From Octopus vulgaris (taxonomy: Eukaryota): a DNA stretch of 64,000 nt. The notes under the pieces are model-generated. The model had not been told where the DNA came from. It was given only the letters and a program-made list of their open reading frames with translations, and did no database searches. Position numbers and translations under genes: made by a program. Within the stretch, counting starts at the first letter, position 1; each line of letters begins with the position of its first letter. Shown piece after piece: positions 36,223-63,313 of the stretch. The stretch is taken from the NCBI GenBank assembly GCA_951406725.2, contig OX597822.1, positions 78,616,001 through 78,680,000 of the forward strand, read 5' to 3'.

Positions 36223-36427
36223 ATGGAGACATCAGAGCTGTCACCACCACACGTAAACCACCCACTTCCACAATTAATGTTTAGAACCACAGTGTTCCCA
36301 AACAATATAAGCATGAGCCCAAGTCGGAGGCCTGCACGCTGTGCCAAGATTGATTACGACTACACAGTCATTCCAGCTGTGATATGTTCCATGTGTTTTC
36401 TCTTTGGAATTGTCTACACATTCTTTG
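36223..36427 (+). CDS. TMEM198: TMEM198 coding exon 1 (N-terminus and first TM helix)
   Basis: METSELS...C.....Y.VIPAVICSMCFLFGIVYTFFG matches vertebrate TMEM198 (PALVCIMCCLFGVVYCFFG, recalled). Phase-1 donor G|GTAAGT at 36428. Confidence 0.92.
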
Positions 36428-39400
36428 GTAAGTTTACTAATTGACCCTTATCTTGTCCCTTTATTTGCCTATCCTTTTTCTTCTTGTTTTTCTTGTTCTC
36501 TCTCTCTTTCCTTTGCTGTCTCTTTCTTGCTGTCTTTCTCTTACACTCTCACCCTCTCTCTTGCTCTCTCCTTCTACCTCTTACTCTCTTTCCCCCTATG
36601 CCCTCTCTCACACGCATTCTGCTTTGGTTTGAGTTTTTGGTCTTAAGCTTCCATTCTCACTGCTTTCCATTTCCCTAGCTGACTCATTCTTATACCTTGT
36701 GCATGCACCCCCAATTTACTCATCTTCCTTCATCACCATCACCATATGTCATACCCATGGGTATGACAGATATCCTCCACCACTGGATTTTGAGATTTGT
36801 TGCAATCCTTTGTTATCTTCTTGAGCTCCTTTTATCCAGATATCCTTCATCACTGCTTTCTACATCTCCTTTGGACTACTTCTTCTGACAGCTCCTTCTA
36901 CTTGGATCACTTGATCCTTCATCATCAGCCCCTACAAAAAGAGGACACAATAGAACTTGTTCTACAGAAGATCTCCTGGAGCAATAATACAAACTCACCC
37001 AAACACAAAGGCATTGTCTATAATTCAAGACTCTGCCTGCAGATTTTATTCCTCAATTTTAAGTAAAGATGGGCTATACAGTTGAGAAGGTTGCTTCCCA
37101 ACCAAATGTTTCTGGGTACAGTCCCACTGCATGGCACTTTGGGCTTGTGTCTTCTGCTATAGCCCTGGGTTGATCAATTCCTTGCGAGCAGATTTGCTTG
37201 ATGGAAACTGAAAGAAGCCATCATCTGTGTGTGTGTGTACCTTTGTCTTAATATCACATGGTAGTTGTAAAAAAGTATCACTGTCATACAAGTAAGGTTG
37301 TTCATTCCCAGTGTTCTGTGTGAAATATTACTTTACTTGGAAACAAGTGAGAACTGGTGACAGGAAGGGGCATCTTGTGGACTACCATTTTAAATTGAGT
37401 TTCTTCAAGTTCTGAGTTCAAATTGCTCCTAGGTTGACATTTGATTTCATTTCCTCTTGAATCTACCATCATCATTATCACATTAATGTCCACTTGTCCA
37501 TGCTTACATGGGTCAGACAGAATTTATTGAGATAGATTTTCTATGGCTGAAAATTGTTTCTAAGCAAGGTAATATTTTCCCATGGCCAGACATGATTTTG
37601 CAGAATACTGCAAATGAATGATGCAGCTTTGATTAACAGTGACAACCATTTTACAACAATCACACAGTGTTGAAACAAGGAGACACACAAGAGAATTCTT
37701 TCAGTTTCTCCTTACCAAATTCACTGAGAAAGCTTTCGTTAGTTTGGGGCTATGACAGAAAACACCTGCCCAAGGTGCCATACAGTGAAACTGAACCCAG
37801 GACCATGTGGTTGGGAAGCAAACTTCATAACCACACAGCTGTGTCTTACTTAAAAATAATTAAAGATGGGTGTTGGGAAAGGCATCTGTCTGTAGAATAT
37901 TACTTCAAAAAGTTTTATATTACCCGGTTGCTCTCAACCAGGGTCCATGTAAGATTTTTTTGTTAAAATTTATTTGCAATAAAGTGGTTTTATTTCTACA
38001 AGGCACAAAATATTTTAACAATTTTTTTTTATACATTTCCTAATAATATTTAATTATAAAACTGCAATAGGGTCTTTTTTAAACATTGAATGGTTACGAA
38101 GGTCCATCCAAGTAAAATAGGAATCTAAAGGGTCCATAGCTAAAAAAAAAAGGGTTGAGAACCATTGGTGTAACCCATCCAAGCATTCAGAAGAAGACAT
38201 CAAATGGTGATGTGTTCTTCTGGAGATTTTTATGCAAATTGCTGGAGCAGTTATCCTTTACATTAAGATGATGCTTACCACCCTCTACTTTTTATTTTTC
38301 TATTTATCCGAGTTGAAGATTACTTTTTCAGATCTTGTATCTTGTTTTGCATTTTTTTGTCTGTAGTTGTCCTCCCATCGTTTCTTTCCTTGTCTATCCA
38401 TAATCTCAGCTTTAAATTTAAGCCTGACATAATTTATAACAATAGAAACCATACATACAGCTGTCAGCTGCCCCCATGACATCACAAATGTTATAAATAG
38501 GTCCCAGCAACTGGGTTGTTGTTGTTGTTGTTGTTATTATTATTAAAATAAGTACCAGTTAGGTACTGGGATCGATGTAATCAACTGTCCCCTTCCCCCA
38601 AATGTGAGGCCTTGTGCTTCTAGTAGAGTATATTATTATTATTATTAAGGTGGCGAGCTGGCAGAATTGTTAGCATGCCAGACCCAACATTCGAAAGGAG
38701 CTTAGCCACTTTGCCTCCGTGAGACCCAACACTCAAAAGGTGTTTCTTATGTGCTACTGGCCTGGGTGCCAGTTATGTGGCACTAGCATTAGCCACAACT
38801 ATGATTTCACTTGGCTTAGTCTTAAAGGAAATAAACCAAGAAATAACACTTAACTTTAATCTGTTATCTTGTACATGTTCCAGTTGTTGTGCTGTAGTCA
38901 TGTTGGGACTTGAACTGATTGATCCCAGTCCTTATTTTTTAAGTCTATCAGTTTCTTTTGTTGAACTGTTAAGTCATGGTAATGTAAACAAACCAACAAC
39001 AGTTCTCAAGTGGTGGTGGGGGGGGGAGAAATAATAATGGTAATGATTGTGAATGAATACCACTCTCTTGAGAAATTTGTTTTATCAGTTCTTTGTTTTT
39101 TTTGTGTGTGTGATTAAAGAATGATATTAGGTTTTAGACACAATGTTTGGGTACAGTACCTCTGACATTTAACAGTTCTGTTGTCAGTTTGACTGTTCTT
39201 AACCCTCACACCGTTTTCTAAAACAGATCTGATGGCTTATGTTATGCCTCTGACCGTAGTTTCATACAGATGGATTTGAAGCCTCTTTTGTCATTCATTA
39301 TCCTCCTCATCATCATTTAACACCCGTTTTCCATGTTGGCATGAGTTGCATGGTTTGACAGGAGCTGGTAAACCAAATAGCTGCACCAGTTTCCAGTTGT

Positions 39401-39737
39401 CTGGTATGATTTCTACAGCTAGATGCCAACGATTTTATGGGGTATACTGGGTGGTTTTTATTTGGCACCAGCATGGCTGCTTTATATATGGCACCAGCAC
39501 AAGTGCCTTTTACATGACACCAGCATAAGTGCTTTTTACTTGGCATAATGTGATATTCTTGTATTGTTTTTTAGCCCAATCAGTCTTGTTAAATGAAATG
39601 GTCATGACTGTAATATTTTTGCTTATAAGTTTGCACTTTTTTTTGTTGCAAATACTGTATTTGACTGCATAAAAGATGCACAGGTATAAGGCACACCCTG
39701 ATTTCAGATGCAGTGTAAAAAAAAGGTTTTTCGTGTA

Positions 39738-39964
39738 TTAACTCTTTAGCATTCAGATTACTTTGTCAAATGTAATGCTTTATTTTTGACTTTGCTTTAA
39801 ATTAATCATACTTTATTCTGTAGCATTGAGATATTGCTGGTATGATTGCTTATTTTTTGAATGACAATGTAGGGTAGGTGTGAGAGGCTGGATCTGGCTG
39901 GATTGAACATTAAATAAAGAGAATATTTGGACCAGATTTGACTGGTTTAAATGCTAAAGGGTTA
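39738..39964. mobile_element. piggyBac-like MITE (TTAA-flanked, CCCTTTAGCATT TIRs)
   Basis: ttaactctttagcatt ... aatgctaaagggttaa. Related copies lie at ~7790, 18243, 57532, 57887 and 63700. Confidence 0.6.
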
Positions 39965-41449
39965 AACATGTAATATAGGCCCAACTTTGCAACAAAGACC
40001 CAGTGTGAATTTTCGAGACATTGTTTTTTTTAAAAAAAAGGACATTTTATACACCATCAAATATGGTAATTTATCTAAAATATTATTTTATATAACCATT
40101 TAAAAAAATAAAAACAACTGGGTGTAATTCGAGGGAAATTTAGCTGCTATTTCTAGCAAGTTTACTGACCTCATAAACATTTCCTCAATGGCTCATGTAA
40201 TTGTTTTGAAATACATAGATGTTATTGGTGAACACCCTGAAAATGCTCTAGGCCTTCTTAACCTTAAATTTTACCATGCTGTACAAAATTTAACCTAGTT
40301 TAACGCATTACTAACTCACTTCTCCTTGCTTCTTAGCATACCATATTATATCATCAAATCATTATATATAATGTTCTTATAGCTTTTTTTCAGCTTTGTT
40401 CTAACAAATCTGTGTTTAAGTAATCAGCCCTTTTTTATTCTTATTCAATATGAAACTTAACAGCTTTCATACTGAGACCTTCATAGAAATAAACACAAGT
40501 ACACCTGCCTATTTCCTTCGTCACCTTGTTTGGTCTTTTGTCTCTAAGCTCTGAAGTCTTGGGATTATAATATTTCACACTATTAGACTTATGTTTGAGA
40601 GATAAAACCTTTTCTTTTATATTAAGGATTAGTTTGGTCTTTGGTTGCCATCATGTGTTTTTGTGAGTGATTATAATAAACAAAGTCTCTCTCTCCATAT
40701 ACACACACACACACCATATGTGCAGGCATGAGTGTGTACTACCCAAGCATGTGGTCCCAGGTTCAGTCCCACCAAGAGGCACCTAGAAAGGTGGCAAACT
40801 GGCAGAAACGTTAGCATGCTGGTCAAAATGCTTAGTTCTGAGTTCAAATTCTGCCGAGGTCAACTTTACCTTTCGTTTTTTCGGGGTTGATTAAATAAGT
40901 ACCAGTTACGCACTGGGGTCAATATAATCGACTTAATCCGTTTGTCTGTCCTTGTTTGTCCCCTCTGTGTGTAGCCCCTTGTGAGCAGTAAAAAATAAAT
41001 AAGAAGAAGCACCTTGGCCAAGTGCCTTCTGCTATAACCTCTGGGGTTGGTCAAAGCCTTGTGAGAGGACTTGACAGAGAGAAATAGAAAGAAGCTTGTC
41101 ATAGATAGATAGATAGATAGATAGATAGGTCAGTAGATTGTGTCTGCCTTTGTCTTGACATCACTTGATGGTTGTAAAAAGAAGCATCACCCACATGCAA
41201 TCAAAGATAACTATTTCCAGTCTTCCATGGAAAACACGTCGCTATGAGAAAACATTTACTTGCTTGGAAACAGGTGAGAGTTGGTGACAGTAAGGGCACC
41301 CAACCATAGGTTATCTACCTCAACAAATTCTGTCTAACCCATTCAGGCATGGAAAACTGGATGTTAATTGATGCTGATAATTTACGTATGTATAACCATG
41401 TTACATGTATACTTTAAACCCACAAATATTTTTTGTCTTTTACTTTCAG

Positions 41450-42013
41450 GTTACCGATTCTTCAAGGCTGTCATGTTCTTAACTGGTTTCATCTTTGGCA
41501 CAGTGGTTGTATATATAGTTTGTATAGAAGAGACAGTATTGCCGAAAGAAGCAAACATTGGCATTGCAGTGGGTGCCGGCATAATCTGCGGACTAATTAC
41601 CATGTTGGTCCAGTATGTTGGACTTTTTCTGACCGGATTCCACTTTGGCGTCGGTCTCTCGACCGGAGTGTTGGTCACAGTGGACCAGTTCTATAACATT
41701 GCCAACAAATGGATACCAATCGGTGTTCTCATTGGTGTTGGTATTTTATTTGCGCTGCTGACTCTCAAGTTCCAAAAGGCAGGCACCATTCTCGGTACAA
41801 GCGTCTTTGGTGCTGCCTTGATGGCGATTTGCCTGGACTATTTTATAGAAAAATTCCTGATCGTGAACTATGTGTGGGAGTGTATCAAAGTGGAGGATTC
41901 TGACCCTCCCTGTTGGTACAGCTGGCTGATTCTCGGTTGCTGGCCTTTCTGTTTCCTTGTAGGCTCCTTGACCCAGTGGAGAATAACAGGACAGAGCGCA
42001 GACCATCACGAAA
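41450..42013 (+). CDS. TMEM198: TMEM198 coding exon 2 (DUF4203-type multi-pass TM region)
   Basis: Acceptor tttcAG|GT completes Gly, giving GYRFFKAVMFLTG...VGLFLTG...DYFIE...CWYSWLILGCWP...QWRITG..DHHE. 564 nt, phase 1 to phase 1; donor A|GTAAGT at 42014. Confidence 0.96.
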
Positions 42014-42845
42014 GTAAGTAATTTTTAAGACATGTGTGTGCCTGTAAATGTATGTCTGTGCACTTGTCTGTATGTTTTTGTGTGTATGTGAGTGCTTGTA
42101 CCTTTGTGTGCGTATGCGTGTATCTGATATAACTAACAGTTGTAGGGTGTTAACCAAGGAGTTAATCTAATTTTATGGAAGAGAGTATATCTACACACAA
42201 ACTACCACATCACAGAATTAATGAGGGGACTCTGCATGGTTGCTTTATTTTGCTAGAAGTACAAGTAAATCCCCTTCAAATCATATATCATAAAAGAAGA
42301 GCAATTTGAATAATATAGTTATAGTAGACTGTCTGAAAATTAGAATGGATGGTCATAGGTGGAAAGCCTTTAACCAAACATTTTCTTGATCAGGGCTAAA
42401 CAACATACACATACACACAAAATACATTTATGCACATTCATGCTAACACACACACACGTACACAAAGACACGCTTATGCACAACCCAGCTAAATATCAAT
42501 TTACTGTAAACCACCCCTTCACTCCATGTCAGAATGGAAGAATGAACGTTAAAATGATGATGGTCATGTAATTAGGAGTGAAGGGCCTCAATTAGAAGCT
42601 TCTATCAATATTTATATAAGAGATAATTAATGCTAAGTTATGAAGCCTTTTACTCCAACCAAGCAAAAAATAAGTTACTTGGTTTACTAAATCCCTCAAA
42701 ATTTTAGTTTTAAAAATTCTTTAAAAGACAATGGAAAATTTGTGGGAGGGAATAAATCGTGTACTCTGGCCCTAGTGCTCAACTGGTCCTTATTTCTTGA
42801 ATTCAAACCTTAAAGACGGATGAAATAACACTAAGCATTTTGTCT

Positions 42846-42969
42846 CAGGGCTGTGGAGTCAAAACTCCTCTACTATTGGCACCTCCGACTCCTCTTCATG
42901 TAATTAAGTGATAAGAATAAAGATACTGCAAGTCAGAGTCAGAATAGTTTTACTGACTCCACAGCCCTG
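42846..42969. mobile_element. hAT-type MITE with perfect 15-bp TIRs
   Basis: cagggctgtggagtc / gactccacagccctg, with 8-bp TSD ttttgtct/ttttatct. Inserted into a SINE. Confidence 0.8.
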
Positions 42970-44039
42970 TTTTATCTAGTGTATTAACAACTGCCAGCTC
43001 AGTTAAAGAATGTATGTATTGGAAATGGTGAAGGTATGTGGCCTGGTGGTTAGGGTATTGCATTCATGGTTGCAAGATCATGGTTTCAATTCCTGAACTG
43101 GGCAGTGCATTGTGTTTTTGAGTAAGACACTTCATTTCACATTGTGACTGACTGGGCATCCCATCCAGGGGATATGTTATGATCTCAGTTGCTTATTCAC
43201 CATGGAAACTGGGTACCTAGGACCCAAGGCTTCATTGAGTTAAAAACACAAAATTGATGAAAGCATGTTGTCACAAAGACTCCTACATTTTGTTCTCTAA
43301 GACAGAAGGCATTGAATAAACCACCTAGCCTGATGTGGCTCTGTAGAGATCGGAAATCACATCCTTTCAGGTAGTGGATGCTTTTTACCTAATGTGTTCC
43401 TCTTTTTTTTTTAAGACAAAGTATGATCTGAAGTAGATTTGCTTGCTATTTCTAGCAAATTAAGTAACTGTTATAAAGGCTCTCTATGGAGGTTTGTAAT
43501 GCTGGCCTGAGTTGTTGTTTAACCCCATATCAATTTATCCAATGTTAGTTTTCTTTTAAGCTGTAGGGTGTGGTTTTATGAAGATTTGGTTGCTATTTCT
43601 TGTAGGTCAAAATAGTAGTCATTAACTTGAAATTTCTTTCAACTGAATTATTTTAATGTTTTACAACTTGTAGTCTGGCTATCTTTACAAGAAAAAGAAA
43701 GATATTTTCATTTTAAAAGCACACATGTGACTTCATACAAACCCCTCTTCACTGGGAAACAGATGTTTAAGATCATTATTAATAAAAGAATATGAGAAAA
43801 TAGAAAAACTATTAGTTCTAAATTTCTGAACAAGAAACATGCATCAACAGCACAATAGTGTAAAGTTTATTTGCCAACATAACATGGCAGTCCTATCAAC
43901 GCTGCATCGATAGCCAGCTGGAGAAGATATTTTCCTGGGGCTAAATAGCAGCAACATTCGTCCTAACCAGGACTGCCACATTACATTGGCAAATAAATTT
44001 TACAATATGATAAAAGAAATCCCAGCTCTTTACACTCCA

Positions 44040-44693
44040 AAATCCAAATACTGCTGATGTCAACTTAGCCTTTACACTTTTCCAAGATCAATAAAATAAA
44101 GCATAGGGATCAATTGAATCAACTACTCCCCCCCTTTCCACACACACACACACACACACACAACTCAAAACTGCTGGCCTTGTGCCTAAATTAGAAATAA
44201 TGCTATGATAATTAAGACAGTGGACTTGCAGAGTTGTTAGCATGCCAGACAAAATGTTAAGTGGCATTTCACCTATCTCTATGTTCTGAGTTCAAATTCT
44301 GCTGAGGTCAAGTACTGCGGTCAAAGTAATCGTTTTAACTCCACCTCTTAAAGAATTTCAGGCCTTGTGCCTATAGTAGAAAGGATTATTCAGGACATCA
44401 TCATCATCATCATCATAATGGTTAATTGTCTGAACTATTACTGTGCTGGACAAAATGCCTTGTATTATTTGTTTTTGTTCACTATGTCCTGGGGTCAGAT
44501 AAGTCAGTGAATTGCCAGAATTGTTAGACATTCAAGTATTGTTACAATCCCTATATGTTCTTAGTTCAAATCTCAGCAAAGTCAACTTCCCCTTTCATCT
44601 TTCCAAGGACAATCAAATACGTACAAGAACTGTACTTGGTATCATTACTTGTTTCCCTTTCCTCATATGTTTGACTCTGTACCTATATTATAA

Positions 44694-44728
<35 letters not shown>

Positions 44729-45460
44729 GAGGCAGCAAGCTGGCAGAATCGTTAGCACACTGGATAAAATGCTTAGTGGTATTTTGTCTGTCTTTATATT
44801 TTGAGTTCAAATTTCGTCTTTGCCTTTCATCCTTTTAGGGTCAATAAATTCAGTACTAGTCAAGTACTGGAGTTTATCTAATCAACTGGCCCCCTCCCAC
44901 CAAATTTCAGGCCTTGTGCCTATAGTAGAAAGAATTATTATTATTGTTATAAGGCAGTGAGCTGGCAGAAATGTTAGCATTTCTTAGCAGTGAAAATGCT
45001 TAGTAGTATTATGTCTATCTTTACATTCTGAGTTCAAATTCCACCGAGGTCCACTTTGCCTTTCATTCTTTTGGGGTCGATAAATTAAGTGCCAGTTGCG
45101 TACTGAGGTCGATCAAATCGACTGCCCCCTCCCCAAAAATTATGGGCCTTGTGCCTAGAGTAGAAAAGAAGATTATTGGAAAGCGGACGTTAAATGATGA
45201 TGATGATGATGATGATTATTATTGTTATTATTAAGGCAGTGAGCTGGTAGAGTCGTTAGCAGATTGGGCAGAATACTTAATGACATTTTCATTCATCTTT
45301 ACATTTTGAGTTCAAATTCTGCTAAGGTCTACTTTGCCTTTCATCTTTCCAGGGTCAATAAATTATGTACCAGTTACACACTGGGGTTGATGTAATCAAC
45401 TAGTAGCCTCCCCACAAATTTCAGGCCTTGTGTCTTTAATAGAAAGAATTATTATTATTA
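44040..45460 (+). mobile_element. Head-to-tail cluster of ~6 CpG-decayed Meta-domain-like SINEs separated by (ATT)n/(ATC)n
   Basis: Repeated ggcag..agctggcagaa..gttagc...gagttcaaatt...ggccttgtgcct..agtagaaa units at ~44215, 44500, 44730, 44952 and 45234. Confidence 0.8.
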
Positions 45461-45542
45461 TCTTGAGAGAGCAATGCATGCCATCAATGTGACATTGGGG
45501 TAAAATATATGAAACCCAGTATACCCATCATGACTACCCATC

Positions 45543-46955
45543 TGTTTTTAGGTTCTGTCCCACTGTGTGGAAACTTAGGCAAGGGTCTTCAATGAGAGCA
45601 CCAAGCCAACCAAAGCCTTGCAAGTGAAATTGATTGCTGGAAGCTAAAAGTAGCTGCTTTTCATATATCTATTGGATACATGCATCACAACCATATTTGC
45701 ACAACATGGTGATCTCCTATCAAGATAAACCATGCATGACCTTGCATGTGGCACCCAGTTAGAATTTTCTTCAGGTTGAGTAGCCCATCCTGCTCAAAAA
45801 GTCCCTAAATAAGGGTTGTTTAAGGATGTTGAACGAAACACCCATGTTTCCAAAAGTAAATTATCCAAACCCCAAAGAATTCTTCCCCCACTACTTCTGC
45901 TTATGATCAGAGATGCACATATCGTCAGCCACCAAGGGACATGCTCAGCTAGTTAAGGTCAAGCAACTGACAAGCAAATCTGTGTTATTGAGCAGAATAT
46001 TTGTTGTAGCCCATCTTTTATACCAAGACAAAACATGTACATGATAACTCTTCCAATCAGAGCCACTGCCTGGTACTGCATCAGGACATTATTATTATTA
46101 TTATTATTATTTTGTGTAACTAACATATGAAACCCAGGCAAGGCATAGGTATGACCATGTGGTTAATAAGTTTATTTTCCAACCACATGTTTTTAGGTTC
46201 TGTCCCACTGTGTGGAAACTTAGGCAAGGGTCTTCAATGAGAGCACCAAGCCAACCAAAGCCTTGCAAGTGAAATTGATTGCTGGAAGCTAAAAGTAGCT
46301 GCTTTTCATATATCTATTGGATACATGCATCACAACCATATTTGCACAACATGGTGATCTCCTATCAAGATAAACCATGCATGACCTTGCATGTGGCACC
46401 CAGTTAGAATTTTCTTCAGGTTGAGTAGCCCATCCTGCTCAAAAAGTCCCTAAATAAGGGTTGTTTAAGGATGTTGAACAAAACACCCATGTTTCCAAAA
46501 GTAAATTATCCAAACCCCAAAGAATTCTTCCCCCACTACTTCTGCTTATGATCAGAGATGCACATATCGTCAGCCACCAAGGGACATGCTCAGCTAGTTA
46601 AGGTCAAGCAACTGACAAGCAAATCTGTGTTATTGAGCAGAATATTTGTTGTAGCCCATCTTTTATACCAAGACAAAACATGTACATGATAACTCTTCCA
46701 ATCAGAGCCACTGCCTGGTACTGCATCAGGACATTATTATTATTATTATTATTATTTTGTGTAACTAACATATGAAACCCAGGCAAGGCATAGGTATGAC
46801 CATGTGGTTAATAAGTTTATTTTCCAACCACATGTTTTTAGGTTCTGTCCCACTGTGTGGAAACTTGGGCAAGGGTCTTCAATGAGAGCACCAAGCCAAC
46901 CAAAGTCTTGCAAGTGAAATTGATTGCTGGAAGCTAAAAGTAGCTGCCTTTCATA
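45543..46955 (+). repeat. 645-bp direct tandem duplication (2 full copies plus a ~120-bp third start)
   Basis: Units start at 45543, 46188 and 46833. The ORF track shows identical ORFs at 45959 and 46604. I see one difference between the full copies (gaacgaaaca vs gaacaaaaca). Confidence 0.95.
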
Positions 46956-49900
46956 TATATCTATATATGTGTGTATATAACTGTGCATTAGTGTGTAGGT
47001 GTTTGCATCTTCTGAATATCATGAGCTTGATGTAAATGAGTGTCATTCATTTCCAAACATCTGCAGAGAACATGTCTGCCCATGGGGAAGTATTACTTTG
47101 GAAACAGATGAGGGTTGGTGACAGGAAGAGCATCCAGCTGATGAAAAATCTGTCTCGGTAAATTGTCCAACCCATGCAAGCATGGAAAAGTGGTGTATGT
47201 GTGTGAGTGAATGAATTCATATCGTCTTCATCTTTACATGTGTTGGCTGGGTCTTACTGACGAGTCCATTTGGTTCTTGTTCTCAATGCAACCATGTCTG
47301 AACTGTTTGTTGGTCAATAGACTGGTAGGTTATTACTTTGCTTGGAAACAAATGAGGATTGGCATCAAGAATGGCATCTGACTATAGAAACCTCCACCCA
47401 AGAAAACCGTCCTCTGACCCATGCAAGCATGGAAAAGTAGACACTAAAATCATGATGATAACAATTTTCCTTCTTCAACAGACCGACACCATTTTTATAA
47501 TGGTGATGGTGGTAGTAGTAGTGGTGGTGGTAATACTGTTGTACTGCAGTAGCAGCAGCAGCATTGGTGGTGGTGGGAGGGAGGAAATTGGATTTGCCTA
47601 TTGTCCTGTCTCCTCCCACTATCACCCACAGCTGTTACTAAGATGCTCAATTGATATTCAATTTTACTTTATGTTCGGTTATTTATTAATGTTGAACAAA
47701 AAAAAAACGCCAGCTGACTCTTCGTGTGTGTGTGTAATTACGTATACATGCATATGAATGCCTACCCTGCCTTTTCAACAATATCCTCTCCATCGTGCCC
47801 CCCCCCCCCCCGACACCCCCCTATGATATTGCACAACACTGGCACACAACATTCATAACAGACAAATAAATATGGTGTCCTCTACATGATTGTTAGACCT
47901 GCTAGAAATAGCACCCAGAGCGCCCTCAAAAGTCATCATTGTGGTTTAAAATAAAATGGAAGAAATACATTGGCTAATGTAGTTTTCAGAGTGCAACAAG
48001 ACTGGATGGTCACGATTTGGACTGCCTCAAAAATTTAGAAAAGGTTGTATGCTAACTATGTGAAGCAGTTGTATGGTAGTCATTTGATGTACTAGACATA
48101 GCAGTCAGATATCATTTAAACCCCACCCTACAGTTTTAGATAAAGAAGGTTACATTAGACAATGGAGATAGAGCCTGATATACAATAAGAAGATTTGGTC
48201 TCAACTAAATAACAAAGAAGTACATAGTGGATAATGTACTCTTAGATAGACTATGCCTTAAGAAAAAGTACACCAGATGGAATGTCTGTAATCAGAATCA
48301 ACTGAAGGAGAGCTGACCTGGGGTAAAGCTGTTTCTAGTTTTGCACCTTCTGTTGAGACCTTTAAATGCAGGGTTGTGGAGTCAAAACAAAAAACTTTGC
48401 CTACACATGCAAACTACATAATCTTCATCATCATCATTTTTTTAATGTTCACTTTTCACGCTTGCATGGGTCAGATGTAATTTATTGAGGCAGATTTTCT
48501 ATGGCTAAAGGTTCTTTTCTATCACCAACCCTCACTTGTTTCAAAACACGCTCATTTACAACTACCACATGACATCAACTCAAGATGACACAAACATACC
48601 CACATACACTCACACACACACATTTCCATTTACCAAATCCACTCAAAAGGATTTGGTTGGCCTGCAGATATGATAGAAGACACTTGCCCAAAGTGCCACA
48701 CAGCAGGGCTGAACCCAAAACCTTGTGATTGAAAGCAAACTTCGTAGCCATGCCTGCACCTTTTTATTGAAACATATGAGGCAATTAAACTTGTTCCCTA
48801 GAACTCCTCAGCATTAACCACCTTTTTGATTGAAACCAACACATCTGAGAATTCTTCTTTTTCATTACATACATGATTATAGTGATACCTCACAGTACGA
48901 GTTTAATTCATTCCATGACCGAGCTTGTCTTACTATTTATTCATTTTACAAATCAATTTACCCCATTGAATTTAACTAAAATATTAATCCATTCCAGCCC
49001 CGCAAAACCACTCAAAAATAATTTTTTATGGATTTTAAAACAGAAAAGGTGTAATTACAAGTAAAGTGACAATTATAGAAAAAAGAATACAAAAGTGGTT
49101 TTATTAACTGAATCACCTTAAAGATGGAATGTACTGTGTGCTCATACTATGGATTTCTGCTCATACTTCGAGACAAAAATTTGCACGTCTTGGCTTGTAC
49201 AGCAAAATTACTTGTACAATGGGGCACTCATAGTTTGAGTTTCTACTGTATTGTTCAAAATGAACTTAACCATTTGGCTATGCTGCCTTGCCTATAACAG
49301 CAAGCTGCTAATTGCACCAATTGACCTCAAAGTGAGGTTAAGGTCCTTATTCTTATGTGCATAACCTCAATCAGCTCTACATGAATGACATAGTTCTAGG
49401 GTGCACACTCACAGACATACCAAATATTTAGGAACAATCCAATGTATTTTGGGATCCTAGCACACTTCTAACAGATAACGTTTATAGGCACAGGCATAAC
49501 TGCATGATCAGGAGGCCTGTTTCCCAACCATGTGGTCTTGTGTTTAGTCCCACTACATGGAACCTTGGCCAAGTGTCTTCTATTATAACCTTGGGCCAAT
49601 CAAAGTCTTGTGTGTGGATTTGGTGGAAGAAAACTCAAAGAAGCTCATCATTATATGTGTGTGTGGGGGGGTATATTTGTTTTTGCCCCTACCACTGTTA
49701 GACAAACAATGTTGGTTTGTTTATGTTCCTGTAACTTAGCAGTTCAGCAAAAGAGACTAATTGAATAAATACCAATCTCAGTTCATTCAACTAAAACCCT
49801 TCAAGGTGTTGCTCCAGCATGGCTGCAGTCAAATGACTGAAACAAATAAAAAATAAAAGGCTATAGTAGAAGACACTTGCCCCCCAAGGTGACATGCAGT

Positions 49901-51953: not shown

Positions 51954-52006
<53 letters not shown>

Positions 52007-52870
52007 ATAAAATGTGTACTTACATATAAGAGAACAAAGTGCATGTACACCGCTAAAGTGGACATTAAACAAAAAACGAACGATATATATCTAGCTTAGC
52101 CTCACTCCAGTCCCAATTGAGCTGATCTCATTTATTCCAACTCTGACTACCTCAACCTTTTCTGATGCTGATGGGGGCATGGTGCACCTAGGATCACATC
52201 ATTTAATGTGCCTTTTACAAAGAGACTTGATTTTAAAGGAGAGTTGATTACTGTTTCTAGCAGATCAAGCAACCGCATAGACTCTTTCATACGTTAAGTG
52301 GGAATGTGTATAGGAAGGAATGTCTCCTGAAAAGCATCAGAGGTTCAACTGATTGTAATGTCTTGTAAAACACAAAAATAAGATAAATAACAGTCTGGAA
52401 GATATTAATTTATCAAATTTCTTTTTTTAAGTAATTAGTGTCTCATTAATGATTTAAAATTTTAAATGGCAGTATAAGAAATAGAAATTCATAATGGTGA
52501 AATGTTAACAATGTGTGTGTTTAGTAATGACATAATGAACCTCCTGAGAGGCAACACAATCTGTTTCAATACACAAATTCACATCAAGAACTTTGCAAAC
52601 CAATTCCAAAAAGTGTTGAATAAGAGAGAAAAGTTTCTGAGTGAATTTAAAGATGTAATGGCAGGGATGCTCGTTAACGAAAATAGAGTTTTGGTATTTG
52701 AAGGGTTAATTGAAAGCATTTGTTAATGAGTGAGTTGTTCAAAATGTTGGCTTTGCAGAATGTTGTTGGATTGCGAGAAAAAAATGAATTCTATGAGTAA
52801 CTGTATTTTCACTTTTTTTTCTAAATTTTTGTTATTTGTGTAAGTATTATTGCATTTCTTTACTCTTTAG

Positions 52871-52933
52871 GAGTACATAGAAATAATGTCTCATCTGCCA
52901 AATATCGGTCTCCGAGCTCTGATGAAGTTGATG
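52871..52933 (+). CDS. TMEM198: Candidate 63-nt symmetric (phase 1-1) TMEM198 exon: (R)VHRNNVSSAKYRSPSSDEVD(G)
   Basis: tgcatttctttactctttAG acceptor and G|GTAAGA donor. It is open in the phase set by exon 2 and is a higher-complexity island in an AT-rich intron. Confidence 0.65.
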
Positions 52934-53034
52934 GTAAGACTTTGGTTTGATTGCATCACATGTGTTTATCCTAGTAGCATGATGCATGCAACCTCAATTA
53001 TATATATACATACATACATACATTCATGTATGTA

Positions 53035-53079
<45 letters not shown>

Positions 53080-53333
53080 CCTTTTCCTCCAAAATCCTTT
53101 GTGCCTCTGTTGATGATGTAATTGTAGCTTATTTTCCTGCTTCTGTTGTGACAATTTGAATGTTTTTAATGTAAATATTTTCTCTTCGTTTTCCATCCTT
53201 TATGATTTATTTAACTCTTTTTTTTTGTGCAGCTTTGTGTGTTAAACGATTCTATTCATAAATTTTCGAGGAGTAGCTTAGTGTTTTATGTAAATGAGTG
53301 TGGTGAGTGAACCACATCCAGGTTTATCTGTCT

Positions 53334-53564
53334 CAGTGGTTCTCAACAATTTTTGCCTATGGACCCCTTTGATTCTTATTTTATTGAAGTGGGCCCCCCA
53401 TAGTCACTTGACACTTTGAAAAATCCTGTTATATTTTCATAATTTAATATTAGGAATTGTATAAAGAAAAATTAAATTATTTCGCATATTGTAGAAGTAT
53501 AATAAGTTTATTGCTCATAAATTTTAACAATAAAATCTTACATGGACCCGGCTGAGAACCACTG
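53334..53564. mobile_element. hAT-type MITE
   Basis: TIRs cagtggttctca / tgagaaccactg; an inverted sibling lies at 53944-54192. Confidence 0.7.
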
Positions 53565-54771
53565 ATCTAAGTTTACAAATATGCTTAACCTACCAGCACA
53601 GCTCAAGAAATTGACTGGCTTGAATAATGTCTGACTGTACTGGTCCAGCCAATACATTTCTTATCATGCATTAACCATGCCTCTGATCACATTGAGTGAG
53701 CAGACACCTCTTGTGTCTTGCTACTCTGGTCTAGTACACATCGTTTTCTGCATTAATCTATTGCAGTGCTGCGTAACATGATCCACACCAAAGTTATGGT
53801 GACCTGTGGCAAGTTTTTTTGTCCTACAGTGTTGCATAATGCACTTAAAATCTCCTGTATATTTGGTGATCTGTGAAGTATTTTTTTGTGAATTTTATGA
53901 ACCACCTGATGCAAAAGGTTATGTATCACTGATCGCTTTATATCAATGGTTCTCAACCAGGGTCCACGTGACCCCTGGGGTTCCATTCCATATAAGGTTT
54001 TAGTGTTAATGTTTATATCCAATAAATTAGTTACAGCCTTAGGGCTGAAACATGTAAAATACAATTCCTAGTAATAATTAATTATAAAAGTATAATGGGA
54101 CTTTTTTAGAACATTGAATGGGAATGAGAATCCTGCAGAGTAAAATAGGATTCAAAGGGGGTTAATAAACAAAAAATGGTTGAGTAACATTGATCTATTG
54201 AATATATCCCTGATCACATTGGTCTGTAAGGCATGTCCCTGATGACCCTAATTTTAAAACATATTTTACTGTTTATTATTTTATTGGTTTAAGGCAACAA
54301 ACTGGCAGAATTGTTAACACTTGGACAAAGTGCTCAGCAGTATTTCATCTGGCATTTTATGTTCTGAGTTCAAATCCCAAGAGGTCCACTTTACCTTTCA
54401 TCCCTTTAGGGTCAATAAAATAAAGTATCGGTCGAATACTGAGGTCAATGTAAATGACTTGCCTTGTCCCTGCAAATCTGCTAGCCTTGTGCTAAAATTG
54501 GAGAGAAAAACATTATCTTATTGGATTCAACCAGTATGTAGTGACCATGCTGGGGTCATAAACATTTATATCACAGGCTTGTTATATCTTCACTAGTCTA
54601 GGAAAAATAAAATATATATATATGCTGAAGCACTGCCTTTTAGCTGAACAAATCAAACCCAGGACTTATTCTTTTGGTCTCTTTTGCTGAACTGCTAAGT
54701 TACAAGGACGTAAACACACAAGCATTGGTTGTCAAGTGATGGTGAGGGGACAAACACAGTCACACAAATAA

Positions 54772-54835
<64 letters not shown>

Positions 54836-55181
54836 GATGGGCTTCTTTCAGTTTCCATTTACCAAATCCACTCACAAGGCTTTCATTGGCCCAAGGCTAT
54901 AGTAGAAGACACTTGCCTAAGGTGTCACAAAGTGGGACTGAACCTGGAGCAATGTGGTTGGTAAGCAAGCAACTTATCACACAGCCTAAATAAGTTGTAT
55001 TTTTTTATAATTTGTGCGAATTAAATTGGGTATTATTCTTCGCCTTGAAGGTTTGGTTAAACAAATCGATCCCTGTACATATTTTCTTTTCAAACCTGGA
55101 ACATATATTATCAGTCTCTTAGGCTGAACCACTAAGTTACAGAGATGTAAGCAAACCAACACCAGCGGAGAACAAACACAA

Positions 55182-55246
<65 letters not shown>

Positions 55247-55436
55247 CTGTATTTGTCCCCACCACCATCGCTTGACAACTGCTGTTGGTGTGTTTACGTC
55301 CCCATAACTTGCGGTTTGGCGAAAGAGACTGATAGAATAAGTACTAGGCTTACAAAGAATAAGTCCTAGTGTCAATTTTGTTTGACTAAAGGTAGTGCTC
55401 CAACATGGCTGCAGTCAAATGACTGAAACAAATAAA

Positions 55437-55474
<38 letters not shown>

Positions 55475-58400
55475 AAGTGAGAGAGAGACATTGGGATTAC
55501 TTCTAGTTTCTGACTACCAAATCCACTCACAAGGGTCAGCCCGAGACTATAGTAGGAGACATTTGCCTAAGGTCCCACACAGTGGAACTGAACCCAAAAC
55601 TATGTGGTTGGGAAGCACACTTCCTACCAAAAAGCCACATATGCTCTTATATTATTATCTTCATCATTTTAGCACCCAGTTTTCCACACTTGCCCAAGAG
55701 GCTTGTCCAAGGTACCACACAGCAGGATTGAACCTGGGAGACCAGATGGCTGGCAAGAAAGCTTCTTAACTACAAAGCCATCCAGGGTTTAAAATTGTGT
55801 AGTGATTGTCGTTATTGTTGTTAGTGGGGTAGGCTGAAGGAATGTTTCTGTAGATATTAGAGGGGAGACATAATTAATATTCAGCTGCCTTCAGAAATGG
55901 AGTTAAATGTTTTACTTATGTTTACTTTGTAAATTTCCCTGCTTGTTCTTGATGTTGTTGTTGTTGTAGTTGTTTTAAGATTTTAGTTTTTATTTGATTT
56001 TTCTTTGTAGCAGTAGTGTTTTGTTTCTCTTTGCAACATAAATGAAAATATGGCCGTTGCCTGTTGTTTTTGCCACAAATTTGAACACTTAACTTCCTCT
56101 TCCCCCTCCTTTGTCTTCGCATCTTCCAGATTTGTTTTTCTTCTGCAAATAGTTTATCCTGCCCTGTTGTTTTGCATGTGAAGGAAAAGGGAGAGATTCT
56201 TTGAAAAAAGATTTTAAAATAAAAAAGGGGGGGAAAAAAAACAGTCATATAAAAGCAGAAACACTGGTAAAACTTTCTGTTTGAATCTCCCCCTCTTTCC
56301 CTATTTCTTTCTTCCTCACCCCTCCTCTTCTCTCTAACTGATATTTTGTGATATGTCAAATCTAGGGAGTTACACATGGTGTCAGAATGCTAATCCCAAG
56401 AGACCCGGCCCTCTATGTGTGTGTGAATGATAAAATATTTTACTTTGCCCTTCCTTTAGCTAGAAATCTAGTACCAATGGGATTTTTTTTTCTATTTTTT
56501 TAATTTTTTTACATATCCACCAATAAAGAAGAAGTAATTTTAAATCAACAAGGAACTTCTATATGGATGCTTTTTCTGTTAGAAATAGTAAGCAAGTCTC
56601 TCGGTTCACACTCCACTGGTTTTTAAAAAAGACAAGTATTTAGTAATGGCCCTTTATATTTCTGAGCTCAAATCAGAAGTTGGCTTTGCCTTTCATCCTT
56701 ATGAAGTCTGTAAAATAAGGAAAAAAGTCAAGTGCTGGATTTTAGATGTGAATATGTGAAGGCGTTTAGCCTAGTGGTTAGGATGTTGTACTCATGGTCT
56801 AGTGACTGTGGGTTCAATTGCTGGATTGAGCAGTGTATTGTGTTCTTGAGCAGAACACTTCATTTCAGCTTGCTCCAGTTCACTCGGCTTTAAATGGGTA
56901 ACCCTGTGACAGGTAAGTGTTCCATTCAGGGAGATCATTGGCTTGCCCGCTAAGCCAGTGGGGTACCATCATTTGAACAATACAACAATCCAAAGAAAGT
57001 GTATTGTAACTCGCGGTGTGTAACAAACATCCAATAATCTGGTGGATACAGTGATGTGTGAATATGATTATAATAGACTACATGTTGGATAACATAACCT
57101 AAAATACTCAATGACTGCAGTAGAAAACACAACACAAAAAGATGGGATAGTCATGGCTGGAATATCTTTGATTATAGGTCTGCTTACTTAAAGCTGTTCT
57201 TTGACTAACCAACAACAATCTATTTTGTATTTGTTGTGGTTACCTGTGGGCTCTGTTGAGGGCCATGTAGTTGAATACACTCACACAAAGTGCCATGCAG
57301 TGGAACTGAACACGAAATCATGTGGTTGGGAAGCAAACTTCTTACCACAGAGTCATGCCTACACCAATATTAAACCAAAACTGTATAAGGTATTATAATC
57401 ACCAGTTTGAAAAAGTATAGAGCAAACAGGCCAGTGATGGGACTCAAACCACCCCAGGTGATTGTTATGTATTGGTTTCAGGCCTGCAGTGAGTCTGTTG
57501 CATTGAAAATTTTAGTTGTCAATTCCCAATATTAACCCTTTTGCATTCAGATAATTCTTTCAAATCTTGCATTATCTCACAGCTTCAAGATCTCAGTGAT
57601 GTAATTGTTTATTTTTAGAATGGCATTGTAGGGTAAGTTTGAGAGATCAGATCTGACCAGATTGAACATAAAACAGATAAGGATATTTTGGCTGTATATG
57701 ACCAGTTTAAATACTAAAGTGTTTTACTGGTTTTTACTTGAAATTACACTAGTGGGGGAATATCTTTGTTGCTTCTCCTTTTAAATTTAGTACAATTGTA
57801 ACCACAACTTCAAAAAAGGAGAAATTTGAAGGGGAAGTGTATGGTGATGGCATTGGTGGTAGGGCTCACTGAAATTCAGTGATCTTTTAACCTTTTAGCA
57901 TTTAAACCAGCCATACCTACTTGTTTTATGAGAGGTCAGATCCAGTCTCTCATATCTATCTGACAATGCCACTCTAAGAATAAACCATCACATCATCAGA
58001 ATTTCAAAGCTACAAGTTAATGCATAATTAATTCAAAATCTAGCACACGAGAGTTCCATTTGATCTGATCAATGGAACAGCCTGCTTGTGAAATTAACAT
58101 GCATGTGACTGAGTACTCCACAGACATACATACACTTAACCTAGTTCTCAGGGAGATTCAGCATGATGCAGAATGTGACAAGACTGACCCTTTGAATTAC
58201 AGGTACAACTCATTTTTGCCAGCTGAGTGGACTGGAGCAACGACAAATAAAGTGTCTTGCTCAAGGACACAGTGCACCGCCGGGAATCAAACCTATGATT
58301 TTATGGTTGTAAGCTGAATACCCTAACCAGCAAGCCACATGCCATCACCTGATTAATTCAAAACAGTGTGAATAAATAGGCATTACGTTTGACTGTAATC

Positions 58401-59088
58401 TGAATGTTAAAGAGTTAAATGCTGTGTCTATATGACATTCACTAAAAAGTCACTAGTTCCTGTACAACAACAGCAAGAGGTTCTTTTGAGCTGTGCAGCA
58501 GAGGTATGTGTAGCTATTTAGTAATTACTATTGCCTCCATTAACCAATCCTCTACGTGGTCATTTGACTTACTAGAAGTAGCAGCCAAATTTTCAGTACC
58601 CATCTTTCATCTTTTACTTGTTTCAGTCATTTGACTGCCCCCATTCTTCTGGAAGAATTTTTTTGGTTAAATAAATTGACTCCAGTATTTTTTGCTTTTT
58701 TTTTTTTTTCCAAACCACTAAGTTACTGGGACATAGATACACCAGCACTGGTTATCAAGCAGTGGTGGAGGACAGACACAAACACACAATATATGTATGT
58801 ATGTATATATATGATGGGTTTCTCTCTACCAAATCCACTCTCTAGGCTTTGGTCAGCCTCATGGTTTATTAGAAGTCATTTGCCCAAGTGGCTACACAGT
58901 GGGACTGAACCTACACTATACCGGGCCATTTTTGATCTTAGGTTTACTCGGTTAGGTCTAAACAGCAAGCAGGTCACTATTAAATATGGCTTTCATGTAA
59001 GACTAAAATTACAGTTTACTTCTATCAAACTTCTTTCATAAAATAGGGCAGCCCCCAACAAAAGAATAGAAAAATGTATAGGTGTAAG

Positions 59089-59313
59089 CAGGGCTGTGGA
59101 GTCGAAACAAAAAACTCCAACTCCTCTTTATGTAATTAAGTGATTGTGGTCTACGTATTTCATAAAGTATATGTATATGCTTGTACTTTGAGTAGGCTTA
59201 TATGTCAGTAAAGATATTGTGAGTCGGAGTCGGTATAGTTTTACCGACTCCAACTTTAGCTACTCCTTAATCGTTTCCAACTCCGACTCTACGACTCCTA
59301 CACCACAGCACTG
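59089..59313. mobile_element. hAT-type MITE with perfect 8-bp TSD
   Basis: ggtgtaag|cagggctgtgg ... ccacagcactg|ggtgtaag with internal (ccgact)n subrepeats; same family as 42846. Confidence 0.85.
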
Positions 59314-60537
59314 GGTGTAAGCATGGTTATGTGGTTAAGAAGCTTGCTTCAAAACCACATGGTTTCAGGTTCAATTCCACCAGACAGCACCTTAGGCAGG
59401 TGTCTCCTACTATAGCCCCAGGACAACCAAATGCCTTGTGAGTGAATTTGGTAAATGGAAACTGAGTGGAAGCCTGTCGTATATATATGTGTATGTGTTT
59501 GTCCACCACCACTACTTAACCAGTGTTGGTTTGTATTTTTCTCCTTTAACTTAGCAATTCGGCTAAAGAGACTGAGAATAAGTAGCAGGGCTCAATAAAA
59601 TCAATACTGCAGTCAATTCGTTTGACTAAAACCTCTTAAGGTGGTGCCCCAGCACAGCCACAGTCTAGGGATTGAAACAAGTGTAAAATATGAATGATAC
59701 AACTGTTAATGTCTCTCAACAGTGCTGCTGGAATCCTGGGCATGGCTTCATCTGAAAGAAACTGTGTGGGTGAAAGCAGATATAATGGACCAATTATGAA
59801 TTATATGGCCAAGAAAGAAGCAAACATGATAATGTCTCCACCTCGAAAACCGCCCCCCCCCATACCACCCCTACGTCTGTCATAATCAGAGATGACTAAA
59901 CAAACTTTTGAGTTGCTTAGTCTACATTACTTTATAAGGAACACAGGGCTGGTTTCTCTGACACACACACACATATTCCTCCCTGGATGGGACACTGATC
60001 CATCACAGGGTTACTCATTTTGGCCAGCTGAGTGGACTGGAGCAGTGTGAAATGAAGTGTCTTGCTCAAGAACACAATACATCTCCTGTTCCAGGAATTG
60101 AAACAATAATCTTACAATCATGAGCATAACACCCTAACCACTAAGCCCTACACCTCTGCAACTAAGTTGTTTAGGGCTTCCATTTGGGGGAGGGAAGGAT
60201 TCATCAGGCTAGTTACCTGGTTTCTGTGGTCTATATGTGACCAAGATCGCAACAGTACCCCTAAACAGTATGCTAGTCTGTTGCAAGATTCAAGGCCAGC
60301 AGATTTTGAGGGCGGGAGCAGCAAGCTGATTGCGTCAACATCCAATTCCTTCCCCAGTACTTGACTGGTACTTTATTTTATTGATCTTGAAGGAACTTAG
60401 GGTAAAGTTGACCATGGCAGGATTTGAACTCAGAATGCCAGAGTGCCAGAAGAAATGCAGCTAAGCATTTTGTCCAACACAGATTCTGCCAGCTTGACAC
60501 TTTTCAGTATTATATACTTCTGCCTTTTTTTGATCAG

Positions 60538-63313
60538 GATTTTGGTGTTGTCGAATATTCCGTCATTTTGGTCAACAAGGAACAGAGCTTGGCTCATTAC
60601 CAGAACAAACGAAGACACCTTGGTTTTCAGATGGGAAAAATACTACCAGCAAATCACTCTCAAAGATATACACACCACAAGGTTCTTATACTGCAACCAT
60701 CAATACTTTTAAATCACTTGTTGGAAAAAATGGGGTAGAAGCATCCCTTGCAAGGGCAAGCATCACCCAGGGTTTGTTTGGGGCAACAGGCTATGTAAAG
60801 GAGTCACCTGTAAGAGTAGATATATCTCGTGAGGTTTTTCCAAGAGCACACCTCAGTATGAATTCATTTCCCAGGTTAGCTTTCAATCAAGACTCATCTG
60901 CTGTGACAGGTTCCATTGGTGGCACTGAAGTTGACTCAGAGTCACTTGTTGGAAAAAGACATAACCAAGATTCATTTGCTGGGACAGAAAGCAACCATGG
61001 CTCCTTTCCTGGAGTAGAGTTTGCCCAGGCATCAGTTTTTGGAACAGAAGGTGACCAGATGTCGTTTGTTGTAATGGGCAGTGGGCAGGGATCTCTCAGT
61101 AGGGCAGAATCGTTTGAGACAGATTTTGACAAGAAATCCAATTTGGGGATTGACTTTGACCAGAGGTTACGTGCTAAGGCTGATTATGACCAGAGGTCTA
61201 ATACTGGTAAAAATGTTGATAGGGGGTCTTATTCGGGTACAGACGTTGAGCAGGGTTCTTATTCTGATACAGACGTTAATCAGAGATCTTATTCTAGCAA
61301 CAATGTTGATTGGAGATCTTATTCCGGCACTGACGTTGATGAAGGATCTTATTCTGGTACAAACGTTGACCAAAGGTCTTATTTTGGTACACATGTTGAC
61401 CAGAGTTCTTATTCTGGTACAAACGTTGATCAGGAGTCTTATTCTGGTACAGACGTTGATCAGGGGTCTTATTCTGGTACAGACGTTCATCAGGGGTCTT
61501 ATTCTAGTACAAACATTGATCAGAAGTCTTCTGGTACAGACGTTGATCAGGGGTCTTATTCTGGCACAGACGTTGATCGGAGGTCATATTCTGGTACAGA
61601 CGTTGACCAGAGTTCTTATTTTGGTGCCGACGTTGACCAGAGTTCTTATTCTGGTGCCAACGTTGACCAGAGTTCTTATTCTGGTACAGACGGTGATCAG
61701 AGGTCTTATTCTGGCACAAACGATGATCAGGGGTCTTATTCTGGTACAGACGTTGACCAGGGATCTTATTTTGGTGCCGACGTTGACCAGAGTTCTTATT
61801 CTGGTGCCGACGTTGACCAGAGTTCTTATTCTGGTACAGACGGTGATCAGAGGTCTTATTCTGGCACAAACGATGATCAGGGGTCTTATTCTGGTACAGA
61901 CGTTGACCAGAGTTCTTATTCTGGTTCAGTTGTTGACCAGAGTTCTTATTCTTGTACAGACGTTGACCGGAGTTCTTATTCTGATACAGAGGTTGACCAG
62001 AGTTCTTATTCTGGTTCAGACGATGATCGGGGTCATATTCTGGTACAGACGTTGACCAGAGTTCTTATTCTGGTACAGACGTTGACCAGAGTTCTTATTC
62101 TGGTACAGTTGTTGACCAGAGTTCTTATTCTGGTTCAGTTGTTGACCAGAGTTCTTATTCTGGTACAGACGTTGACCGGAGTTCTTATTCTGATACAGAG
62201 GTTGACCAGAGTTCTTATTCTGGTTCAGACGATGATCGGGGGTCATATTCTGGTACAGACGTTGACCAGAGTTCTTATTCTGGTACAGACGTTGACCAGA
62301 GTTCTTATTCTGGTACAGTCGTTGACCAGAGTTCTTATTCTGGCACAGACGGTGATCAGAGGTCTTATTCTGGCACAGACGATGATCGGGGGTCTTATTC
62401 TGGTACAGACGTTGACCAGAGTTCTTATTCTGGTACAGACGTTGACCAGAGTTCTTATTCTGGTACAGTCGTTGACCAGAGTTCTTATTCTGGTTCAGTC
62501 GTTGACCAGAGTTCTTATTCTGGTACAGACGTTGACCGGAGTTCTTATTCTGGTACAGATGTTGACCAGAGTTCTTATTCTGGTTCAGTCATTGACCAGA
62601 GTTCTTATTCTGGCACAGATGTTGATCAGGGATCTTATTCTGGCACAGATGTTGATCAGGGATCTTATTCTGGTACTGACGTTGACCAGGGATCTTATTC
62701 AGGTACAAATGTTGACCAGAGTTCTTATTCTGGTAGTGCCATTGACCAGGGGTCTTATTCTTGTACAGATGTTAACCAGAGCTCTTACTCTGGTACAGAC
62801 GTTGATCAGGGGTCTTGCTCAGATACAGACGTTGATCAGGGATCTTACTCAGGTACAGACATTGATCAAGGATCTTATTCTGGTACTGACGTTGATCAAG
62901 GGTCTGATTCAGGTACCGACGTTGATCAGGGGTCTATTTCTGGCACAGACCTTAACCGGAGGTCTTACTCTGACACAGACGTTGATGACAGGTCTTACTC
63001 TGGCTCAGACGTTGATAATGGGTCTTACTCTGGCACAGACATTGACGACGGGTCTAATTCTGGTACAGAAATTGATCAGGAGTCTAATTCTGGTACAGAC
63101 GTTAAGCAGGGGTCTTATTCTGGTACAGACGTTGACAAGAGGTCTAATTCTGGGACTGATTATGACCAGAAATCTTTTGCTGGGACTGACTTTGATCAAG
63201 AATCATTTGCCAGAACTAATTATCTCAAAGGGTCATTTTCTGGCACTGATTGCAGCCAGGATTCATATGCCAGTACAGACCAAAGATCGTTTGTCAGTGC
63301 TTTTTATTATTAG
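60538..63313 (+). CDS. Large terminal coding exon with SYSGTDVDQx decapeptide repeats; probable alternative last exon of TMEM198 (one 1-nt deletion at 62029-62032)
   Basis: Acceptor ctgcctttttttgatcAG|GA (phase 1) lies just after an in-frame TGA. The frame reads (G)FWCCRIFRHFGQQGTELGSLPE... into the ORF-track 60774 frame. With one G restored the repeat frame stays open to ...DQRSFVSAFYY-TAG (63311-63313). Unit variation is largely synonymous in this frame. Confidence 0.72.
61140..63285 (+). repeat. 30-bp coding minisatellite, ~70 units, consensus TCTTATTCTGGTACAGACGTTGACCAGAGT
   Basis: Direct 30-bp periodicity with a homogeneous centre and degenerate edges; one in-frame 27-bp unit at ~61521. 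Confidence 0.97.

Follow-up and report, generated by a model that had tools for sequence, protein, structure and literature searches.

We analysed a window of 64,000 nucleotides from Octopus vulgaris (assembly GCA_951406725.2, contig OX597822.1, positions 78,616,001 to 78,680,000 of the forward strand), in which an intron of the gene of the membrane protein TMEM198 contains a large array of ten-codon repeats at 60538-63313 that may serve as an alternative last exon of this gene. Coordinates are those of the window, and the gene and the array lie on the forward strand. The first coding exon of TMEM198 (36223-36427, 205 nt) runs from the ATG to the first predicted transmembrane (TM) helix and is 100% identical to the O. 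sinensis protein P0001. The second (41450-42013, 564 nt) encodes the rest of the membrane part with the TM7S3/TM198 domain, recognised by the Pfam model PF13886 with an E value of 4e-36 and 125 bits against a curated cut-off of 29.2; it has a single match in the genome and shares 100% identity with O. sinensis TMEM198. The third is a 63-nt cassette exon (52871-52933) that is present in the named isoforms X1/X2, is skipped in X3/X4 and is also found in Argonauta and cuttlefish proteins. Overall, the first three exons show 97-100% identity to named Octopus proteins. An earlier note on this DNA had spliced 36223-36427, 41450-42013 and 52871-52933 to 60538-63313, and we could reproduce these joins, with GT donors, AG acceptors and phase 1 in each case, as well as the translation across them, DHHE-RVHRNNVSSAKYRSPSSDEVD-GFWCCRIFRHF. 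It had also observed correctly that the repeat frame opens at an acceptor just past a stop (TGA at 60531-60533) and has no early ATG, the first Met being residue 107 of the segment. The lengths of 205, 564 and 63 nt stand. The last segment is 2776 nt as assembled, the earlier note having counted 2777 nt with one G restored, and the 1,202 codons given for the isoform are obtained with a continuous frame (1,181 codons if the 63-nt exon is left out).

The named Octopus isoforms (e.g. XP_036362467.1, XP_036362465.1 and XP_052826350.1) are products of the same gene, being 99-100% identical over its first three coding exons. In O. sinensis and O. bimaculoides, isoforms X1-X4 all terminate in a basic tail (LQNKRSRK...) or a variant of it and, like the two O. 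vulgaris models and one Argonauta model, have 339-365 aa, whereas the candidate repeat-tailed isoform would have ~1,200 aa. The basic tail had not been seen in the window, and the earlier note had inferred a lineage-specific replacement or an alternative last exon, proposing a search past the window for the canonical C-terminal exon. When 60 kb beyond the window end were added for this search the exons were indeed found, at G000:C9:78684748-78684878 and 78707429-78707548 (68748-68878 and 91429-91548 in coordinates extended from the window), that is 4.7 and 27 kb beyond the window end and with 98-100% identity to the named proteins. They encode a tail of 83 residues with a net charge of +10, which went unseen because the window ends before its exons. 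As the canonical tail exons are intact downstream and used by named isoforms, the replacement is refuted; its only support was the absence of the basic tail from the window, and we regard it as virtually untenable. The position of these exons places the segment 60538-63313 within the intron between 52933 and 68748.

A further TMEM198 exon, at G000:C9:78692590-78692682 (~76590-76682 in extended coordinates), is used by the named isoforms X1/X3, alters the frame of the last exon and also occurs in the squid/cuttlefish-like proteins P0128 and P0129. Its usage in Octopus and in these two proteins indicates that the coleoid TMEM198 tail is already alternatively spliced. Among 120 listed TMEM198 relatives of 329-796 aa, none of the inspected tails, namely those of proteins over 400 aa or without the tail motif, contained a decapeptide tail. 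Three Timema models (P0053, P0088 and P0095) carry a fused aldolase domain and are probably annotation fusions, and three tunicate proteins (P0068, P0069 and P0079) have long, divergent basic tails. According to PMC8494741, PMC3278829 and PMC12157921, the vertebrate protein is 360 residues long, with seven predicted TM helices and ~110 residues in its cytoplasmic tail; it is reported to associate with LRP6, probably via the membrane part, and to recruit casein kinase 1.

The segment 60538-63313 consists of one 30-nt array of ~89 ten-codon units, made up of 87 full units, one 27-nt and one 29-nt unit, with linkers of 18 and 15 nt. It is preceded by a candidate 3' splice site with a pyrimidine tract and CAG in phase 1 (60513-60537). 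By a crude pyrimidine score this acceptor is the 9th of 959 intronic AG, being outscored by eight that include the canonical one, and it scores as high as the real acceptors of the gene at 41450 and 52871. The candidate exon has a non-repeat start (60538-60593, FWCCRIFRHF...) whose frame is open and matches the phase of the donors upstream. Its first residues (60538-60570), ~30 residues past the last predicted helix, read W-C-C followed by basic and aromatic residues, which to us recalls a palmitoylation site. It continues with old, decayed 10-residue units (60594-61196) that are in register and free of stops, the only shifts of the register being of 18 and 15 nt, then with a homogenised core of SYSGTDVDQx units (61197-63142) that includes the 27-nt and the 29-nt unit, and ends with decayed 3' units and the SYSG-frame stop directly after SAFYY (63143-63313). 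Tandem Repeats Finder (TRF) reported a period of 30, 67 copies and 83% matches over 61187-63195, and the register of the array reaches wider than this span, from 60594 to ~63310. Thus the degenerate 10-aa repeats that the earlier note described in the front part are there, but the part that it called unique is a decayed repeat as well, in register from 60594. At offset 0, the agreement of the ten far-5' units with the core majority is 40%, whereas the median for all other offsets is 24%. The encoded protein shows a lag-10 periodicity (p 0.002).

Repeat-like units seem to extend ~25 codons beyond the stop at 63313 (63287-63390), and the tail may once have been longer. Further downstream there is an AATAAA at 63975-63980 followed by a TA/TG-rich stretch, a possible polyadenylation signal as judged from its letters, besides an ATTAAA at 63889. 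The unit pattern has 27 matches in the genome, all of them at this locus, where the front part also has its only DNA match. An origin from a transposon or dispersed repeat was rejected on the basis of this single locus, the other genome matches to the repeat peptide being 19-41% identical and of low complexity. The stretch 60510-63688 is free of dispersed repeats, although this is a weak distinction, as it is only the 7th longest of 137 such gaps in 124 kb.

The evidence that the array is coding is stronger in its decayed units than in its homogeneous core. Of the 750 bases in the 25 old units, 365 (49%) depart from the core majority, yet none of these units contains a stop, whereas none of 20,000 sets of simulated units at equal divergence was entirely open, with a mean of 11.6 stops. 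None of 20,000 dinucleotide shuffles left the 219 codons of 60540-61196 open, the other five frames having 6-15 stops, and the shorter stretch 60540-60911 was open in 58 of 20,000. Shifts of register along the array amount to 18, 15 and 27 nt together with a single 1-nt slip. Omega values based on pN/pS, the ratio of nonsynonymous to synonymous differences, were calculated against the core majority and gave 0.41 (61197-61496) and 0.38 (62783-63292) in the SYSG frame, compared with 0.73/2.29 and 0.94/1.57, respectively, in the other two forward frames; in the oldest units the SYSG and +2 frames are not separated by omega (0.59 vs 0.61). Once runs of shared changes had been collapsed, a synonymous excess was found in the SYSG frame only (p 0.036 for 87 units and 0.050 for 32 flank units). 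This excess is marginal, the flanks taken singly giving p 0.076 and 0.28 and the units not being independent, and a first within-array synonymous test gave p 0.165. Given that the old units are diverged but stop-free and that the synonymous p values are marginal, there appears to be strong selection against stops and weak selection on the identity of the residues.

These data have to be set against the possibility that the segment is a non-coding minisatellite in which the acceptor and the open frame both arose by chance. An unrelated octopus locus, L024 (G000:C26:41022072-41025494), contains two minisatellites with long open frames on both strands; it was the best other genome match to the repeat peptide, was rejected as a relative of it and was used as a control. 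Because L024 is also open in several frames, the homogeneous core of our array alone proves nothing, and a non-coding origin would further agree with the eight intronic AG that score above the acceptor and with the non-significant test within the core. It would not account for half-diverged flank units without a stop or a frame-breaking indel, for 219 codons that no shuffle left open while the other frames have 6-15 stops, or for a contig that breaks at the acceptor (see below), and we find it very improbable.

The reading frame of the core is interrupted once, by a one-base slip in a G run at 62029-62032, where four G are present, compared with five in the sister units at 62234 and 62384. Apart from the gap at the slip and one substitution, the surrounding 179-nt block (61914-62092) is the same as the 180-nt block 62123-62302, 209 bases on. 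A single G in a G run within a near-exact duplication is the usual place for a consensus error, and we infer that the slip is either an assembly error or a very recent mutation. The coding signal of the SYSG frame persists after it. As assembled, the reading continues in the +1 frame past the slip to a stop at 63351-63353. Dual coding of this frame (ILVQTLTRVL) was considered and rejected, since codon use by itself keeps the frame open, synonymous shuffles of 62033-63310 being expected to give 0 stops in it.

If the slip is real, the segment could be a decaying exon, that is a formerly used last exon, which would account for the old coding signature, that is now spliced at noise level or yields a junk product with 440 residues in the +1 frame. 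The slip is present in the one assembly examined, the segment is absent from the named isoforms of three Octopus species and Argonauta, two of the three contigs that reach the acceptor are unspliced, and repeat-like sequence continues past the stop at 63313, all of which agrees with decay. The same can be said of the comparison with organism C, in which the front of the segment has 19 differences and 0 gaps in 472 nt and three intron pieces have 19 differences and 7 gaps in 436 nt; the divergence of the exon is similar to that of the intron (19/472 vs 19/436) and does not indicate any clear extra conservation. A decaying exon is nevertheless unlikely in our view, as the slip concerns one G of a homopolymer run within an almost exact duplication of 180 nt, as the 89 units have no stops, the young ones included, and as the acceptor is intact.

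We also inspected the contigs that cover the acceptor. Contigs of four runs from four studies (X1, X2, X3 and X6) were compared over 52780-61180, their RNA status being presumed; contig depth is unfit for ranking expression, and the tables of joints and loose ends (at least 1,189 and at least 6,075, respectively) are dominated by dispersed intron repeats. Part of 60538-61180 was found in 11 of the 24 runs listed, and 8 of the 11 are presumed to be RNA; none of the runs among the listed matches to 60538-61180 has an RNA status on record. Six listed contigs lie within the segment and three of them reach the acceptor. Contig 16 of run X2 (238 nt) aligns to 60537-60759 with 0 differences from its 16th letter, leaving 15 loose letters ahead. 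The alignment is expected to start at 60537 for a join from 52933, where one G is common with the intron end, and at 60538 for a join from 42013. The contig suggests splicing at the acceptor, while it does not name the partner exon. The other two, record 7 of run X1 (60480-60817) and record 31 of run X6 (60445-60699), cross the acceptor unspliced; since both runs also contain other intron pieces, these contigs fit pre-mRNA or DNA.

The partner could belong to a nested gene instead, a separate transcript of the same strand, starting from a promoter and first exon of its own in the introns of TMEM198, that would encode a soluble or secreted repeat protein. Any exon ending in C, G or T and then G fits the break of the X2 contig, the Met at residue 107 could be a start, and a looser donor scan of introns 2 and 3 returned five candidate ATG exons of at least 5 codons, with frames ending at 47117, 47572, 51778, 53865 and 59769. 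These candidates are short and intron-like and have weak donors, however, and the four strict GT[AG]AG donors in the preceding intron (52934-60537) that fit the X2 break all lack an ATG frame behind them. Both the phase and the break point agree with the known exon ending at 52933, and a nested gene appears quite unlikely to us.

We also characterized the predicted product of the repeat frame. Its two SYSG-frame pieces have net charges of -40 and -65, contain 19-26% S and 12-18% D and show no hydrophobic helix. They hold 113 S/T-x-x-D/E and 71 D/E-x-x-S/T patterns, which we take to be CK2- and CK1-type (casein kinase 2 and 1) sites, respectively. Although these counts exceed those in residue shuffles, one unit is counted many times, so that the excess does not indicate that the motifs were selected for. 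Modelling of the repeats in two AlphaFold2 runs gave a predicted local distance difference test (pLDDT) score of 54.5 for a strand-rich model and 45.9 for one with no secondary structure, and a Foldseek search with the first model returned no match at E 0.001 or better; the low-confidence models are compatible with disorder. Word-indexed searches found no protein match to the front residues 1-215 (proteins of 515-1640 aa) or to the 3' repeats (proteins of 344-2000 aa), HMMER found no homologue among 1.84 billion representatives, and no alignment-based homologue was present in the Atlas and metagenome contigs, these blank searches covering called proteins only. The nearest Atlas cluster is a chordate set automatically named 'clumping factor A-like' (0.86), which is a lead only. 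A literature search returned no paper on TMEM198 in octopus and none containing the repeat unit as a word, and for octopus together with decapeptide repeats it returned only an unrelated adhesion review.

Taken together, the coding signature, the good acceptor and the contig break at the junction lead us to favour the explanation that 60538-63313 is probably an unannotated alternative last exon, which would give rise to a TMEM198 isoform of ~1,200 aa with an acidic tail. To this extent the interpretation of the tail in the earlier note survives, without the replacement that it had offered as the other option. A number of observations weigh against the alternative last exon. The junction is supported by one contig, which has a depth of 2.8 and, with 15 loose letters, falls short of the 31-letter bar for a bridge, and all four compared runs were taken as RNA by guess only. 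To these are added the points raised above, namely the two unspliced contigs, the five loosely defined ATG exons, the absence of the segment from named isoforms, the marginal synonymous signal and the first, non-significant test, the open frames of L024, the intron-like divergence in organism C, the presence of the slip in the assembly and the blank protein searches.

In this explanation, some cells or stages would join the donor at 52933 (or 42013) to 60538, the transcript would end near 64000 and the canonical exon would be bypassed, the slip at 62029-62032 being a homopolymer error of the assembly. The resulting minor isoform would retain the seven-helix membrane part, lose the 83-residue basic tail (net +10) and gain ~920 residues with a net charge of ~-105 and no confidently predicted fold. 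As each unit bears S/T-x-x-D/E and D/E-x-x-S/T, the tail might act as a membrane-tethered, polyanionic array of casein-kinase substrates that dampens or redirects the normal scaffold function. Even if the isoform is real, we regard this function, a kinase-substrate array that alters the scaffold, as possible but doubtful. We are still more tentative about the joint reading in which octopus has built a 920-residue acidic tail without a known relative in an intron of a conserved Wnt co-receptor scaffold and retains it as a last exon that can be switched, so that splicing would control a kinase sink or phospho-scaffold; the same low confidence applies to its other part, a reversal of the charge of the TMEM198 cytoplasmic face from ~+10 to ~-105 with more than 100 casein-kinase-type sites.

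If the exon is real, current octopus annotations have missed a large coding exon in a family that otherwise has a short basic tail. It would represent a repeat domain that grew by tandem expansion inside an intron and was put to use for switching the tail of a Wnt-pathway scaffold, and its old and young repeat units stand side by side in one array. The surprise is limited, since alternative last exons are a well-known class and the normal form of TMEM198 is intact.

Other features of the window lie outside this question. At 45543-46832 there is a head-to-tail duplication of 645 bases with one mismatch, either a very recent duplication or an assembly artefact, which TRF missed because its period is over 500. 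A 214-codon open frame at 2868-3512 on the forward strand looks by eye like the 3' end of a reverse transcriptase open reading frame of a long interspersed nuclear element (LINE), and a 132-codon frame at 34814-35212 on the reverse strand, with the motif WPPNSPDCNP, looks by eye like a Tc1/mariner transposase remnant.

In composition the octopus tail resembles several repeat proteins, the serine-aspartate (SD) repeats of staphylococcal ClfA, dentin phosphophoryn and the KSP tail repeats of NEFH, with which it has in common the S/D composition, the negative charge and the kinase-type motifs. Its unit is different, however, no alignment-based relative was found, and the predicted octopus tail would be anchored to a membrane protein of seven helices. 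With the pentapeptide and decapeptide beta-helix proteins it shares the 5/10-residue period and a hydrophobic residue every five positions, but the corresponding Pfam models PF13599 and PF25296 stay under their cut-offs (32.7 vs 38 and 20.7 vs 45, respectively) and no confident fold is predicted. The closest parallel in gene structure is provided by isoforms that arise from an alternative last exon or intronic polyadenylation, such as those in PMC5928244 and PMC9341504, which likewise involve an intronic 3' splice site, a frame, a stop and a possible poly(A) signal. The transcripts described in PMC5928244 lose coding sequence, whereas the octopus transcript would add ~920 residues and bring the protein to more than three times its length.

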